From assembly GCA_039961715.1 (NCBI GenBank), contig JABRVW010000067.1:18396-82395 (forward strand): a stretch of 64,000 bases of DNA, given 5' to 3'. The notes under the pieces are model-generated. The model saw only the letters and a list, made by a program, of their open reading frames with translations, had not been told where the DNA came from and did no database searches. Made by a program: the position numbers and the translations under genes. Every line of letters starts with the position of its first letter. Positions within the stretch are counted from its first letter, which is position 1. Positions 46,527-51,032 of the stretch are shown piece by piece. This DNA comes from Ignavibacterium sp. (GTDB lineage Bacteria > Bacteroidota > Ignavibacteria > UBA10030).

Positions 46527-47444
46527 TCAGACAGACGTAAGCCAGTTGAACCGATCGTTTCCGTTGCGCACGATGTCAAAGAAGGCCGTCTGCAGCGCAC
46601 GCGTCACCGGCCCGGGCTTTCCTTCACCCACCATGATCTTGTCCACCGACCGGATAGGGGTAATCTCCGCCGCCGTCCCGCTGAAGAAAGCCTCTTCCAC
46701 CGTGAACAGCATTTCCCGTGGAATGTTCATTTCCACAACGGCATATCCCAGATCCTTCGCCAGTGTGATGATGGCCGACCTCGTCACACCCGGCAGCAGC
46801 GCCGCCGACAAGGGGGGCGTGAAGACAGTCTTGTCCCGGATCAGAAAAATGTTCTCTCCGCTTCCCTCGCTGACGTTGCCGAAGAAGTCGAGCGCGATGC
46901 CCTCGACATAGCCTCCCGCGATGGCTTCGAGCTTGATCAGTTGGGAATTAAGGTAGTTCCCGCTTGATTTCGCCATCGTCGCAAAAGTGTTGGGCGCGGG
47001 ACGCTGCCAGGAAGCAACACAGACGTCGATTCCGCGTTCCAGCGCCTCCTCTCCAAGATACGCGCCCCACTCCCAAACCGCAATAGAGACGTCCACGGGA
47101 CATCCCAGAGGATTCACTCCCACTTCCCCATACCCTCGGTACACGAGGGGACGAATGTAGCAGGCCTTGAGCTTGTTTGCGCGGATCGTCTCCTTGATCG
47201 CCCCTTCAAGCTGTTCCCTGGTGTAGGGAATGACGGACCGGTAAATTTTCACCGAATCGTACAACCGTCGCAGGTGGGCATCCAGCCTGAAGATCGCGGA
47301 ACCCTTTTTGGTTTCATAACAGCGGATCCCTTCAAACCATCCCGATCCGTAATGAATAACGTGAGACAGAATATGGATCTTCGCGTCATCCCATTTCACG
47401 AGCTTTCCGTTCATCCAGATAACGTCTGCTTTCTTGACTGGCAT
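46527..47444 (-). CDS. ilvE: Branched-chain amino acid aminotransferase (class IV)
   Basis: 305 aa. YHYGSGWFEGIRCY-type start, EGSGENIF, class IV fold pattern. Confidence 0.93.
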   Translation of the reverse strand: MPVKKADVIWMNGKLVKWDDAKIHILSHVIHYGSGWFEGIRCYETKKGSAIFRLDAHLRRLYDSVKIYRSVIPYTREQLEGAIKETIRANKLKACYIRPLVYRGYGEVGVNPLGCPVDVSIAVWEWGAYLGEEALERGIDVCVASWQRPAPNTFATMAKSSGNYLNSQLIKLEAIAGGYVEGIALDFFGNVSEGSGENIFLIRDKTVFTPPLSAALLPGVTRSAIITLAKDLGYAVVEMNIPREMLFTVEEAFFSGTAAEITPIRSVDKIMVGEGKPGPVTRALQTAFFDIVRNGNDRFNWLTSV

Positions 47445-47467: not shown

Positions 47468-48586
47468 TTACAAAGGCTTTTCGTAAATGCGGTAGGTTTT
47501 GTACGCTTCCCCCCGCAGGGTCTGCGCCGCCTTGATCATCCTGTCGTTGTCCTCCAGGATCCAGCCGGCCTCGCCGTAGTGATATCCCAGAGACCGCGCC
47601 CGCGCCGCCGTTTCGTAGAACAGCACCCCCGCCGCCCCTGTCGGCTGATGCTCAGGCAGGACCCCGAGGACGATGATCCGCACCAGATTGATCTTCTTCT
47701 TGTGCAGGACCAGCCTCAGAAGCCCCGGAAGGAGTCTTCCCTTCTTGTTATGCCGCAGGGCAATGTTAATATCGGGAAGAGAAAGTGCAAATCCAATGGT
47801 TTTCCCTTTGAGCTCCGCGAAGAGCACCAATTCAGGAATCACTATCGGTTTCAGGTCCGCCGCCAGCGCGTCGATTTCTGCATCTGTAAGAGGGACCGCC
47901 CCCCAGTTATACGCCCATGCCTTGTTGTAGATCTCTTTGATCAACTGGACTTCGCTCTTGAACTTCCTCATGTCCATTGAGCGGATTGTCAGGCCGTATC
48001 GCTCCTTCACAAGATTATTGACGCGTTCGAGCTTCTCCGAGTAGACCGTGTCCTGCGAGAGCAGGTAGGAATACAGATCCTTTGCTTTTTGGAGGCCGTA
48101 GGACTCCAGGAGGTCGATATAGTAGGGGGGATTGTACGGCATGAGGATGACCGGCGGCTTGTCGAACGCGTCGACGAGCAAACCGTACTCGTCGTTCACC
48201 GACGGTGTGGCGGGGCCGCGCATTCTCTCCATGCCGTGAGCCCTCAGGAACTGCGCTGCCTGGTCGAGCAGGGCGTGTGCGGCTTCTCTGTCGTTCAGGC
48301 ACTCAAAGAAACCGAAGAACCCGACCTTGTCCTTGTGTTCCTTGTTGTGGTTATGGTTAACGATGGCTGCGATCCGTCCCACCACGCGTCCGCTGCGCTC
48401 GGCGAGATAGAACTCCGCTTCAGCATGCTGATAGAAGGGGTTTTTTTTCCGGTCCATTAGCTTCCGGCGGTCCATCCAGAGAGGGGGGACCCAGGCGGGA
48501 TTGCCGGCATAGACCGTCCAGAGAAATCCGATGAAGCGCCTTGTGTCGGCTGCCGTTCTGACGGGCCGGATGATCAACGAGCTCAT
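47468..48586 (-). CDS. GNAT-superfamily N-acyltransferase, about 370 aa (candidate lipid N-acyltransferase)
   Basis: C-terminal GNAT core with acyl-CoA motif QPTGAA (Q/R-x-x-G-x-G/A) and a preceding GNAT-like half. Lies 112 nt downstream of the alpha-oxoamine synthase gene on the same strand. Confidence 0.7.
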   Translation of the reverse strand: MSSLIIRPVRTAADTRRFIGFLWTVYAGNPAWVPPLWMDRRKLMDRKKNPFYQHAEAEFYLAERSGRVVGRIAAIVNHNHNKEHKDKVGFFGFFECLNDREAAHALLDQAAQFLRAHGMERMRGPATPSVNDEYGLLVDAFDKPPVILMPYNPPYYIDLLESYGLQKAKDLYSYLLSQDTVYSEKLERVNNLVKERYGLTIRSMDMRKFKSEVQLIKEIYNKAWAYNWGAVPLTDAEIDALAADLKPIVIPELVLFAELKGKTIGFALSLPDINIALRHNKKGRLLPGLLRLVLHKKKINLVRIIVLGVLPEHQPTGAAGVLFYETAARARSLGYHYGEAGWILEDNDRMIKAAQTLRGEAYKTYRIYEKPL

Positions 48587-48698
48587 GAGCGGGTTATCCG
48601 GTCATCAAGGCGTCGTGGGATGGCGAAAGAGATGGAGATGGGAAACGATGGCCGTATCGGAGAGTGTCGGCGCCACTATCCATGGAGTGCCGGTTCGT

Positions 48699-49916
48699 TC
48701 AGGTGATGACGCCCAGGCTTTTCCCAACATTCTTGAAGATCTCGAGGGCCTTGTCCAGATGTTCGTCTTCGTGTGTCGCCATGTAGCTTGTCCTGAGCAT
48801 TTCCATGCCCGGAGGAACGCCTGGCCTGATGAACGCGTTGACGAACAAGCCCGCATCGAACAATCCGCGCCACATCCTCAGAACCTTTTCCGTGTCGCCG
48901 ATGATCACCGGCACCACGGCCGAGTCATGCTCGCCCACCCGATAGCCCATTCGAGCCAATCCTGTTCGCATTTTCCGGGCATTTCTCATAAGCCTGTCGA
49001 TCCGCTCAGGTTCTTTTTCGAGGATGTCCAGGGCGGCGAGTGCTGCAGCAACGGAAGACGGCGTGGGGCTGGCGCTGAAGATCAGGGCCGGTGCCTGGTG
49101 TTTCAGATAGTCGATCACCACGCTGTCCCCCACCACAAATCCGCCCAGCGAGGCAAACGTTTTGCTGAAGGTCCCCATCGTCATGTCCGTTTCCTTCTCC
49201 AGCCCGTAGTGGCTTGCCGTTCCGCGTCCCCCTTTTCCGATCACTCCCACAGCGTGCGCGTCATCCACGAGGATTCGCCCGTTGTATTTCCTGGCAATCC
49301 TCACCATTTCGGGAAGGTTCACGATTTCGCCGGACGTGCTGAAGATCCCGTCGGACACAATCAGCTTTCCCGCTTCGGCGGGGAGTTTTGAAATCACCGA
49401 TTCCAGGTGATTCATGTCATTGTGCTTGTACCGCACGATCGTTTTGGCTTCGCCATTGACCAGGGCGTTTGCCCCCGCCGCCATGAGATTTCCGGCAACA
49501 ATGCAGGCGTGGTTGTCTTTGTCCGATACAACGTATTCGCCCCGTTGAACGAGGGTCGGGATGATTCCCTGGGCCGTCTGGTATCCCGTGCTGTAGAGGA
49601 GACAGTCCTCCTTGCCGAAGAAAGCGGCGAGCCGTCTCTCCAGCTCCACGTGAAGATCCAGAGTGCCGGTCAGATACCGGGAACCGGAACATCCTGTTCC
49701 GTACTTGTCGATTGCCTTTCGGGCCGCTTCCTTGACGCGGGGATCCGCGGTGAGACCGAGGTAGTTGTTGGACCCGGCCATGATGACCGTCCGCCCCCCG
49801 ATGCGAACAACCGGTCCCTCGTTTTCTTCGATGGCATGAAAGTAGGGATACAATCCCATTGCTTTCGTTTCGTTGGCGCGGGTGAATTGCCTGCACTTTT
49901 CAAAAAGATCCAACAC
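48699..49916 (-). CDS. Alpha-oxoamine synthase family PLP enzyme, serine palmitoyltransferase-like
   Basis: [59 protein letters not shown] (PLP Lys). By recalled alignment, the STGY and GTFSK..GGFV blocks match Spt sequences rather than E. coli Kbl (SSCFDAN, GTLGKALGGASGGY). GTG/TTG start. Confidence 0.85.
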
Positions 49917-49973
49917 TCAGCTCCGGGATTGTATGGGAGAAAACTTCCGACACCGTTGGAAGTCAGGGCAATT

Positions 49974-51032
49974 TTGAATATACTTCAATATCAGAGGAAA
50001 GTCAATCAATCCAAGGAACGTACGATCGAGGAGCGGGCAATCAACGACACGGATCGCACAGTTGCCGTCACGGGGGGAACGGGCTTCATTGGAAGCCACA
50101 CCGTGGAGGCACTGCTTGCCCGCGGATACAAGGTTCGCTGTCTTGTACGGCCGGGCCGCATGACGCTGGGGTGGCTCGAAGGCCTCCCGGCACAGTTCAC
50201 ACACGTGAACCTGTTCGATCAAAGCGCGGTCCGTTCTGCTCTCGAGGGCTGTAATGCGGTTGTGCACATTGCCGGAGTGACCCGCGCGCGGCGCCGAGCC
50301 GATTTCTTTCGGGGGAACGTTGATAGTACACGCACAGTGCTGGCCGCAAGCCGCGATGCCGGAACCGTGCGTTCCTTCTGTTACATCAGCAGTCTCACGG
50401 CCGCCGGTCCTAGCCCTGCCTCCACTCCAGCGACGGAAGATTCTCCATGCCGTCCCATCACCGCGTATGGCGCCTCGAAGCTCGAAGCTGAGCGCGTGTG
50501 CAGGTCGTTTGAAGATGCCTTTCGAGTGATGATTCTTCGACCCCCGGCCGTTTATGGGCCCAGAGACGGCGATATCCTGCACATGTTTCGGTGGATCAAA
50601 TTCGGCTTTGTGCCCGTCATGGGCCCGCGCGACAAGATGCTCAGCGTGATCTACGTGACGGAGCTCGCACGGGCAATTGTCTGCACGCTTGAATCGGCTC
50701 CCGCGGGATCGACGTATTTTGTCGGCGACCCGGAGCCCTACGCCTACTCCGCGTTGGCCGGAATCGCGGCATCATTGCTGGAAAAGAAGACGCACAACCT
50801 TCCGATTCCCGCTCCTCTCGTTTATCTCGTCGGGGCCGCCACCCAAGCCATTTCCTGGCTGCTTCCACAGCCGTCGGTCGTCAATATCGACAAAGTCCGC
50901 GACCTGCTGGCCGCACATTGGATTTGCAGTACCGGGAAGATTCGACGGGAACTCGGTTTCACACCGGCGATTCAGGCAGAGGAAGGGCTTCGAAGGACGT
51001 TGGCCTGGTACAAGGAGAAGGGCTGGTTGTAG
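49974..51032 (+). CDS. NAD-dependent epimerase/dehydratase family (extended SDR) protein
   Basis: VAVTGGTGFIGSH Rossmann motif and catalytic YGASK (YxxxK). The only in-frame canonical starts before the Rossmann motif and outside the divergent Spt-like CDS are the TTGs at 49956 and 49974, so the start is uncertain. The upstream part of the track ORF overlaps the Spt-like gene on the other strand. Confidence 0.75.
   Translation: MNILQYQRKVNQSKERTIEERAINDTDRTVAVTGGTGFIGSHTVEALLARGYKVRCLVRPGRMTLGWLEGLPAQFTHVNLFDQSAVRSALEGCNAVVHIAGVTRARRRADFFRGNVDSTRTVLAASRDAGTVRSFCYISSLTAAGPSPASTPATEDSPCRPITAYGASKLEAERVCRSFEDAFRVMILRPPAVYGPRDGDILHMFRWIKFGFVPVMGPRDKMLSVIYVTELARAIVCTLESAPAGSTYFVGDPEPYAYSALAGIAASLLEKKTHNLPIPAPLVYLVGAATQAISWLLPQPSVVNIDKVRDLLAAHWICSTGKIRRELGFTPAIQAEEGLRRTLAWYKEKGWL

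Follow-up and report, generated by a model that had tools for sequence, protein, structure and literature searches.

Organization of the locus

Does a cluster of three open reading frames (ORFs) in an uncultured bacterium related to the green sulfur bacteria encode the three-enzyme bacterial route to ceramide, or do its genes serve another lipid, an unrelated pathway, or no pathway at all? The cluster lies in the window, that is, the whole 64,000-nucleotide stretch of Ignavibacterium sp. DNA analysed here. A preliminary description of this window had raised the possibility that the trio encodes ceramide synthesis. Homology, reciprocal best matches, synteny, co-distribution across genomes, and a gene fusion in a relative all support that proposal, and on such sequence grounds we put the probability that the trio encodes the core bacterial (dihydro)ceramide pathway at about 85%.

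The first gene codes for an α-oxoamine synthase (AOS) of the serine palmitoyltransferase (Spt) clade (48699..49916, minus strand, 405 aa). Directly downstream, starting 112 nt past the AOS stop, is a tandem-GNAT N-acyltransferase homologous to bacterial ceramide synthase (bCerS; 47468..48586, minus strand, 372 aa), which carries a QPTGAA motif. The third gene is divergent from the AOS and specifies an extended-SDR reductase homologous to ceramide reductase (CerR; 49974..51032, plus strand). This protein has 352 aa when read from TTG at 49974, the sole canonical in-frame start ahead of the Rossmann motif, and displays the GGTGFIGSH and YGASK motifs. The ORF list thus bears out the three frames and motifs as first described, including the GNAT protein of roughly 370 aa next to the AOS and the spacing of about 57 nt between the divergent genes, which is exactly 57 nt between the TTG at 49974 and the AOS start at 49916. 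This divergent spt/cerR region (49917..49973) is overlapped on both strands by sigma-70-like hexamers, which are weak consensus matches only, and probably serves as a shared promoter region. A consensus scan for promoters and terminators detected no terminator in the 112-nt spt-bcerS spacer on the minus strand (48587..48698), nor in the 23-nt gap between bcerS and the next gene on the same strand, ilvE (46527..47444, minus strand), a branched-chain amino acid aminotransferase that matches its NCBIfam equivalog at 425 bits (cut-off 279). Hence spt and bcerS, and perhaps ilvE with them, are likely to be co-transcribed.

The α-oxoamine synthase belongs with serine palmitoyltransferases

The AOS matches the Pfam model Aminotran_1_2 (E 2e-48) and contains the diagnostic blocks [30 protein letters not shown] and [16 protein letters not shown]. 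Its best NCBIfam match is the Spt model SerpalmtaseCFB (NF047600), with 484 bits where the cut-off is 640, and the other Spt models likewise score below their thresholds (NF047599, 363 bits against 500; NF047603, 319 against 670), as do those for Kbl (350 against 460) and BioF (351 against 426). An NCBIfam equivalog cut-off for Spt is passed by the AOS in only 8 of the 251 genomes sampled from the phylum. Among proteins of known structure, the best match is the Spt of Sphingobacterium multivorum (SmSPT; 8guh/3a2b), at 389 bits and about 47% identity, with Kbl at 235 bits and BioF at 176. In the phylogenetic tree, the clade that contains the window protein has as its sister the clade of bona fide CFB Spt, which includes SmSPT (8guh); the two join the Caulobacter Spt with 100/99 support. 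Kbl proteins group in a clade of their own, likewise supported at 100/99, and BioF stands apart. The sister clade comprises the window's own class, Chlorobiaceae, and family f27, with scores of 460 to 526 bits that fall under the 640-bit cut-off; its members are candidate Spt enzymes. In addition, the AOS is the reciprocal best match of Caulobacter Spt over the full length (38% identity), and the latter clears its NCBIfam cut-off (683 bits against 500). A true Kbl is encoded in the same genome on contig C10 (517 bits against 460). The original view of the AOS as Spt-like and not Kbl is therefore upheld by the NCBIfam and PDB rankings, the grouping with characterised or curated Spt at 100/99, and the separate Kbl.

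Comparison of the active site with that of SmSPT points in the same direction. Alignment against the residues described for that enzyme (PMC10196870) indicates that N52, G80, S81, H138, S185, D210, A212, H213, T241, S243, K244, F272, S273, and A274 are all kept. The features of a fold-type I PLP enzyme are among them: the catalytic lysine, in the GTFSK motif, aligns with K244, and the PLP contacts H138, D210, and H213 are present. In SmSPT, the carboxylate and hydroxyl of serine are contacted by N52, G80, S81, H138, S243, and the main chain of M271 (PMC10196870). The AOS has this set complete but for M271, which is replaced by isoleucine at what is a main-chain contact. Other differences in the pocket are F83 to tyrosine and N117 to alanine, along with a 10-residue insertion.

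These altered pocket positions, together with the placement of the AOS in a sister clade under the Spt equivalog cut-off, could be taken to mean that the trio follows the same enzymatic logic of AOS, N-acyltransferase, and reductase with another amino acid as substrate, and makes a non-serine long-chain-base lipid such as a capnine-type sulfonolipid made from cysteate, or else a ceramide analogue of the 1-deoxy type or one derived from glycine. Sulfonolipids and 1-deoxyceramides are indeed known from Bacteroidota (PMC13692747, PMC11334938). Nevertheless, we regard this as unlikely. Structures of cysteate acyltransferases score far lower against the AOS (28eh, 221 bits; 7u7h, 192 bits) than does SmSPT, and the AOS keeps Gly80-Ser81 and the other serine contacts, whereas in CFAT the pair is Gly81-Ala82 and the pocket is remodelled (PMC13692747). 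On account of these weaker scores and the retained Gly-Ser pair, the identification of the AOS as a CFAT/CapB/SulA-type sulfonolipid enzyme is disfavoured. Moreover, orthologues of the trio are found in Chlorobiaceae (genomes recognised by FMO matches), and an orthologue-bearing Chlorobium produces a genuine sphingolipid, the aminoglycosphingolipid of Chlorobium limicola for which PMC11762602 cites Jensen 1991.

The GNAT and SDR proteins have counterparts in Caulobacter

Serine palmitoyltransferase would supply only the first step of a ceramide pathway, and the case for the pathway also depends on the two neighbouring proteins. The GNAT protein gives a weak Pfam match to Acetyltransf_1 and neither an NCBIfam match nor a PDB sequence match, and therefore its family cannot be named from these libraries. 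NF047601 and NF047602, considered as models for bCerS or CerR, both proved to be MscS channel models. The description of the protein as a double GNAT is corroborated by its AlphaFold (AF2) model, which has a tandem GNAT fold (pLDDT 88, pTM 0.87) and resembles MshD and glucosamine N-acetyltransferase (Foldseek probability 1.0, TM about 0.6). The predicted fold is compatible with N-acylation of 3-ketosphinganine or sphinganine.

A closer link to bCerS comes from comparison with four genomes of Caulobacter spp., other than strain NA1000, located through the N-terminus of the RsaA S-layer protein (75 to 84% identity). Each of the four contains one strong, full-length match to the GNAT protein (38 to 41% identity). 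The ORF at the position of bCerS (CC_1154) aligns at 39% identity (E 1e-82; residues 2-372 against 29-404), and the two are reciprocal best matches, which gives the GNAT protein the affinity to bCerS expected from the preliminary description. The Caulobacter orthologue lies about 7 kb from spt, right after an LptF/LptG (lptF2/lptG2) pair, in agreement with the order CC_1156/CC_1155/CC_1154 on the published map (PMC11324152). Because C. vibrioides itself is not among the genomes compared, the orthologues of CC_1154 and CC_1164 were assigned by synteny with that map and not by locus tag.

The SDR protein is an extended SDR by its Pfam match (Epimerase, E 1.7e-37), and its best named NCBIfam match is HpnA, at 134 bits and well under the model's cut-off. 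It aligns over its full length with the Caulobacter SDR encoded between aasR and acpR-spt (30% identity, E 4e-32), with the GxxGxxG and YxxxK motifs present and in register. This cerR position is its best genome-wide match in three of the four Caulobacter genomes and is near-tied in the fourth (G252), and the SDR and the Caulobacter CerR orthologue are reciprocal best matches. Thus, the concern that it might instead be a threonine dehydrogenase is answered by a best Caulobacter match that lies in the aasR-cerR-acpR-spt block and is not a threonine dehydrogenase. Caulobacter CerR has been reported to be periplasmic (PMC11087976). At the N-terminus of the window protein, a hydrophilic stretch leads directly into the Rossmann motif and no signal peptide is apparent; the Caulobacter orthologue likewise starts at that motif.

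The three genes travel together across the phylum

Across the 251 genomes of the phylum sample used for the AOS and SDR tallies, the genes of the trio occur in the same families and are often adjacent. The Spt-like AOS is present in 193 genomes and the SDR in 191, with family tallies that are near-identical throughout and identical in families f18 (0/5), f20 (0/17), f26 (0/2), f19 (49/51), and f27 (41/41). The GNAT gene adjoins the Spt-like gene in the window's class, f24, and f27. Of the eight genomes in which the AOS exceeds the NCBIfam Spt cut-off, five have the GNAT gene beside spt and on its strand, and in four of these five an SDR match follows the GNAT gene. The SDR gene divergently adjoins the AOS gene across the phylum, including Chlorobiaceae and f27. 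The arrangement in the window is not due to chance, for these genes stand side by side in many relatives. A more intimate association is seen in one genome of the same class (G049), where AOS and GNAT are fused into a single Spt-bCerS ORF of 821 aa.

The same data speak to whether the trio might be homologous to ceramide enzymes and yet be silent or non-functional, as a decaying remnant. We consider this very improbable, given that all three frames are intact and retain their catalytic motifs, that the proteins are 65 to 99% conserved over more than 100 close relatives, and that the synteny holds throughout the order. Finally, we reject the notion that the AOS and SDR constitute a kbl-tdh-type threonine degradation pair (or that the AOS is a BioF-type enzyme) beside an unrelated GNAT gene, for while the AOS scores about 350 bits with the Kbl and BioF models and SDR-type threonine dehydrogenases exist, the AOS falls outside Kbl and BioF in the tree (100/99 support), the bona fide Kbl is the one on C10 (with no tdh among its neighbours either), the Caulobacter cerR position is the best or near-best match of the SDR, and GNAT and AOS are adjacent across classes and fused in G049.

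A predicted route to dihydroceramide

If the trio functions in ceramide synthesis, the first product would be a 3-keto long-chain base, formed by the PLP-dependent Spt-like enzyme through condensation of a long-chain acyl thioester with serine or another amino acid of comparably small size. The tandem-GNAT bCerS homologue would then N-acylate this base from acyl-CoA, with its C-terminal GNAT domain, which bears QPTGAA, probably binding CoA by analogy with MshD, and dihydroceramide would result from NAD(P)H-dependent reduction of the 3-keto group by the CerR homologue. The substrates are inferred, and the suggested order of steps is borrowed from knockouts in Caulobacter and Bacteroides fragilis; in the latter, loss of cerS leads to accumulation of 3-KDS and loss of cerR to that of keto-dihydroceramide (bioRxiv 10.1101/2023.05.23.541633). 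An acyl carrier protein or acyl-ACP synthetase partner elsewhere in the genome, as envisaged at first, did not come to light: the search for a dedicated AcpR or AasR returned only housekeeping-type ACP and generic AMP-binding matches. Since neither dedicated protein was found in the genome, the pathway presumably uses acyl-CoA or housekeeping acyl-ACP.

The ilvE gene, 23 nt downstream of bcerS, is possibly an operon member that is not part of the core pathway. It directly follows the GNAT gene in all 25 fetched loci (L003-L027) of families f1-f5 and f13, and this adjacency is absent in five loci from more distant families of the class. A speculative extension, which we think doubtful, is that spt-bcerS-ilvE forms one unit with the aminotransferase dedicated to iso-/anteiso-branched primers and, separately, that the AOS sister clade prefers a non-serine substrate. 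Were this so, the primers would serve both the long-chain base and the N-acyl chain, and sphingolipid chain structure would be tied to branched-chain amino-acid metabolism at the level of the operon.

The trio has been recorded by metagenomic surveys in about 40 phyla, Bacteroidota among them (PMC11334938), and our literature search found no paper naming both Ignavibacteria and serine palmitoyltransferase. The locus is a clear but ordinary further example of a pathway known in many bacterial phyla, and it leaves the general picture of that pathway unchanged. If the assignment is correct, ceramide-type lipids are predicted in Ignavibacteria-like bacteria of the FCB group, made by the same three enzymes as in Caulobacter and Bacteroides but with neither the ACP nor the acyl-ACP synthetase of the proteobacterial pathway. 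Candidate genes would likewise be at hand for the synthesis of the sphingolipid that has long been known from green sulfur bacteria.

Comparison with known systems

A close counterpart in terms of gene content is Caulobacter crescentus, which has the same three families in Spt (CC_1162/CCNA_01220), bCerS/CerS (CC_1154/CCNA_01212), and CerR (CC_1164/CCNA_01222). The full-length identities and reciprocal best matches to Caulobacter spp. noted above (38%, 39%, and 30%, respectively) sit alongside several differences in organization. The Caulobacter gene order, aasR-cerR-acpR-spt, takes in a dedicated AcpR and AasR (PMC11324152), both missing from the window genome, and cerR in the window diverges from spt. 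Further, Caulobacter cerS belongs to another transcription unit beside lptF2/lptG2 (PMC11324152), in contrast to the window, where bcerS directly follows spt. The same study states that bacterial cerS is always in a different operon from spt. The spt-bcerS layout of the window does not fit this generalization, and the compact arrangement and the Spt-bCerS fusion together contradict it; both would suit acylation straight after condensation.

At the level of fold, the GNAT protein shares its two-domain architecture with the mycothiol synthase MshD (1OZP), a Clostridium glucosamine N-acetyltransferase (5KF1), and MAB_4324 (7Q3A). Like bCerS, these N-acylate amines, but their sequence identity to the GNAT protein is only 12 to 14%, and the groups transferred differ as well: these enzymes acetylate amino sugars, while in the bCerS reaction the acyl chain is long and its acceptor is the amine of a lipid. 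We know of no solved bCerS structure.

Within the phylum, in the GTDB sense, the relevant characterised enzymes are those of Bacteroidia, namely SmSPT (PDB 3A2B/8GUH), Bacteroides thetaiotaomicron Spt (BT_0870), and B. fragilis CerS (BF9343_4218) and CerR (BF9343_4240). SmSPT is the nearest characterised Spt to the window AOS, with a conserved active site. Several of the sampled Bacteroidia genomes have spt-GNAT-SDR operons. Published accounts of Bacteroides describe the three genes as dispersed (PMC11334938, PMC10865984), whereas in the window they are clustered.

Gene content and neighborhood of the trio

Three adjacent ORFs make up the locus, and comparison with the ORF list places them, with every motif quoted for them, where the preliminary description had put them. 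Two lie on the reverse strand: a GNAT ORF (47468-48586, 372 aa), with a weak N-terminal GNAT match in Pfam and NCBIfam, and an alpha-oxoamine synthase (AOS) ORF (48699-49916, 405 aa), assigned to Aminotran_1_2 and the alpha-oxoamine synthases by the same libraries. The third, a forward-strand frame ending at 51032, is an extended SDR of the NAD-dependent epimerase/dehydratase family (Pfam, NCBIfam), in which a single canonical start, a TTG at 49974 and 57 nt from the AOS start, precedes the GGTGFIGSH Rossmann motif. The trio, on contig C67 of a 2.86-Mb genome in 226 contigs, is flanked on one side by ilvE (46527-47444, reverse strand), 23 nt downstream of the GNAT gene (bcerS), and on the other by genes for a PiT phosphate transporter and a PhoU-like protein. 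A terminator scan of the reverse strand saw no terminator-like site between the AOS gene (spt), bcerS, and ilvE. In families f1-f5 and f13, each of the 25 loci fetched (L003-L027) has ilvE directly after the GNAT gene; five loci from more distant families of the window's class do not. We infer that spt, bcerS, and ilvE may be co-transcribed and that the ceramide genes may be linked to branched-chain precursors. The nearest GNAT homologues come from MAGs labelled "Bacteroidota bacterium" or "Ignavibacteriales bacterium."

Affinities of the alpha-oxoamine synthase

The AOS family also includes Kbl, BioF, and cysteate acyltransferase, against which an Spt assignment has to be weighed. The top NCBIfam model is the Bacteroidota-type Spt at 484 bits, below its curated cut-off of 640, followed by beta-proteobacterial Spt (363), BioF (351), and Kbl (350). 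Among solved structures, Sphingobacterium multivorum Spt (SmSPT) leads at 389 bits, ahead of Sphingomonas Spt (about 276), Kbl (235-278), cysteate acyltransferase (221), and BioF (176). The cut-off is reached in just 8 of the 251 sampled genomes of the phylum, and the Ignavibacteria-like, Chlorobiaceae, and f27 enzymes all score 460-526 bits on this model. In a maximum-likelihood tree of 26 sequences, the window AOS falls with its own class, one Chlorobiaceae sequence, and one f27 sequence (98/96), in a clade sister (85/78) to that of SmSPT and eight sequences above the cut-off; together these join Caulobacter Spt (100/99), apart from Kbl (100/99) and BioF. The other AOS of this genome, encoded on contig C10, is a bona fide Kbl (517 bits; cut-off 460). 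The rankings, the tree, and this second enzyme bear out the earlier view that the protein is of Spt rather than Kbl type; it belongs to the sister clade of Bacteroidia Spt, with putative Spt activity.

The alignment with SmSPT (8GUH), read against the SmSPT residues that Ikushiro et al. (PMC10196870) describe, shows that N52, G80, S81, H138, S185, D210, A212, H213, T241, S243, K244, F272, S273, and A274 are kept, with departures at M271 (to I), F83 (to Y), and N117 (to A). Relative to SmSPT, there is also a 10-residue insertion at residues ~148-157, within a 13-residue segment. It may be family-specific, since AOS matches are ~7 codons longer in the window's own family than in others. Separately, a second AOS of one complete Caulobacter sp. 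chromosome (G251, L079, C1:2820007-2821071) groups with Caulobacter Spt (100/100) away from the ceramide cluster and may be a second Spt-like enzyme.

Counterparts in Caulobacter and the order of steps

Caulobacter genomes, found via an S-layer protein query, were searched with the three window proteins. On the G251 chromosome, the top AOS match (3514564-3515745) and the genome-wide top SDR match (3516112-3517047) are separated by a small ORF, and the sole GNAT match (3506176-3507300) covers residues 3-372 at 41% identity (E = 5e-75). Two further genomes repeat this layout; in another, G252, the GNAT match is in two pieces and the in-cluster SDR match is nearly tied with one elsewhere. The annotated region reads AMP-binding enzyme, SDR, ACP, AOS, several genes, an LptF/LptG pair, and a GNAT-like ORF. 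This is the order of the published C. crescentus map, with aasR-cerR-acpR-spt at CC_1165 to CC_1162, lptF2/lptG2 at CC_1156/CC_1155, and cerS at CC_1154 (PMC11324152). The Caulobacter AOS exceeds the NCBI Spt cut-off (683 versus 500). In full-length pairwise comparisons, the window GNAT shares 39% identity (E = 1e-82) with the cerS-position protein, and the SDR 30% (E = 4e-32) with the cerR-position protein, with YxxxK aligned. In the reverse search, Caulobacter Spt, bCerS, and CerR each match the window trio best, and the proposed kinship of the GNAT and SDR proteins with bCerS and CerR holds on these reciprocal best matches.

The predicted GNAT model (pLDDT 88, pTM 0.87) is a tandem GNAT, whose nearest folds (TM about 0.6) are MAB_4324, glucosamine N-acetyltransferase, the clavulanate tandem GNAT, and MshD, all amine N-acyltransferases. 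QPTGAA sits in the C-terminal domain, which by analogy would be where MshD-type enzymes bind CoA. From published work, the steps would run from Spt through bCerS to CerR: Caulobacter cerR mutants build up oxidised ceramide (PMC11087976), and Bacteroides fragilis knockouts build up 3-KDS (cerS) or keto-dihydroceramide (cerR) (bioRxiv 10.1101/2023.05.23.541633). This order fits a genome of the window's class (G049; C12, L084:663-3128, reverse strand) in which AOS and GNAT form one uninterrupted 821-aa ORF, with the Spt-like part N-terminal, the tandem GNAT C-terminal, and a linker of ~35 residues. Such a Rosetta-stone fusion argues for action in consecutive steps; it could be real or reflect a stop codon lost in MAG assembly.

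Distribution across the phylum

Spt-like AOS (E <= 1e-120) and SDR (E <= 1e-30) genes are found in 193 and 191 of the 251 sampled genomes, respectively, in nearly identical families (with the same counts for the two genes in f19, 49/51; f27, 41/41; f18, 0/5; f20, 0/17; f26, 0/2) and, bar one contig-end case, in every sampled genome of the window's class. Strong GNAT matches track the same families, while weaker ones (about 1e-33 to 1e-53) in genomes lacking an Spt-like gene are probably a paralogous family found in the window's genome too. One exception to co-occurrence is a 6.0-Mb f43 genome (G167) with a strong GNAT homologue (C1:5180982-5182103, E = 1e-105), where the sole AOS found is at Kbl/BioF level (E = 4e-70). 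In the window's own genome, two more bCerS-like tandem-GNAT paralogues (C108:25962-27152 and C108:33590-34726, both reverse strand) are 27% identical to bCerS of Caulobacter (E = 1e-35 to 1e-40). The latter is part of a run of genes, all on one strand, that also encodes a DAGK/YegS-like lipid kinase, a PEMT plus DUF3419 membrane protein, an Orn/DAP-type PLP decarboxylase, and a class II aldolase-like protein; these genes may form an aminolipid or head-group cluster that has yet to be characterised.

AOS adjoins GNAT in the window's class, f24, and f27. Likewise, spt and GNAT are same-strand neighbors in five of the eight genomes with an above-cut-off Spt, four of which also show an SDR match after the pair. 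One f27 genome (G180; C1, L067:3154-8980) has two GT4 glycosyltransferase genes between a divergent cerR and spt-bcerS, one of them for an enzyme similar to lipid glycosyltransferases; their position hints at a glycosphingolipid, making this a candidate locus for one. Possession of the FMO bacteriochlorophyll protein identifies the large sister family f19 as Chlorobiaceae. Here AOS and SDR are also divergent neighbors, with GNAT elsewhere: the FMO-positive G098 (C1, L065 and L066) keeps the cerR-spt pair, its AOS 62-65% identical to the window's, and has a bCerS homologue ~1.3 Mb away. According to Jensen et al. (1991), as cited in PMC11762602, Chlorobium limicola contains an aminoglycosphingolipid. 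Its family carries trio orthologues, and the G098 genes are candidates for synthesis of this lipid.

Comparison with known ceramide systems

The AOS tree, the reciprocal Caulobacter matches, the shared families, and the G049 fusion support the original proposal that the trio is a candidate bacterial ceramide pathway, and we predict that it encodes the known one. A metagenomic survey placed Spt-like genes in 40 phyla, Bacteroidota included, often with bCerS and CerR nearby (PMC11334938); our literature search found no paper naming both Ignavibacteria and serine palmitoyltransferase. The pathway itself being already known, the window trio adds another example. Unlike Caulobacter, which has AcpR and AasR, the window's genome yielded neither dedicated counterpart in searches with the Caulobacter proteins. 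The arrangement differs from that of Caulobacter in the position of bcerS, immediately after spt, and in the divergent orientation of cerR; it differs from that of Bacteroides, where the genes are dispersed, in being clustered.
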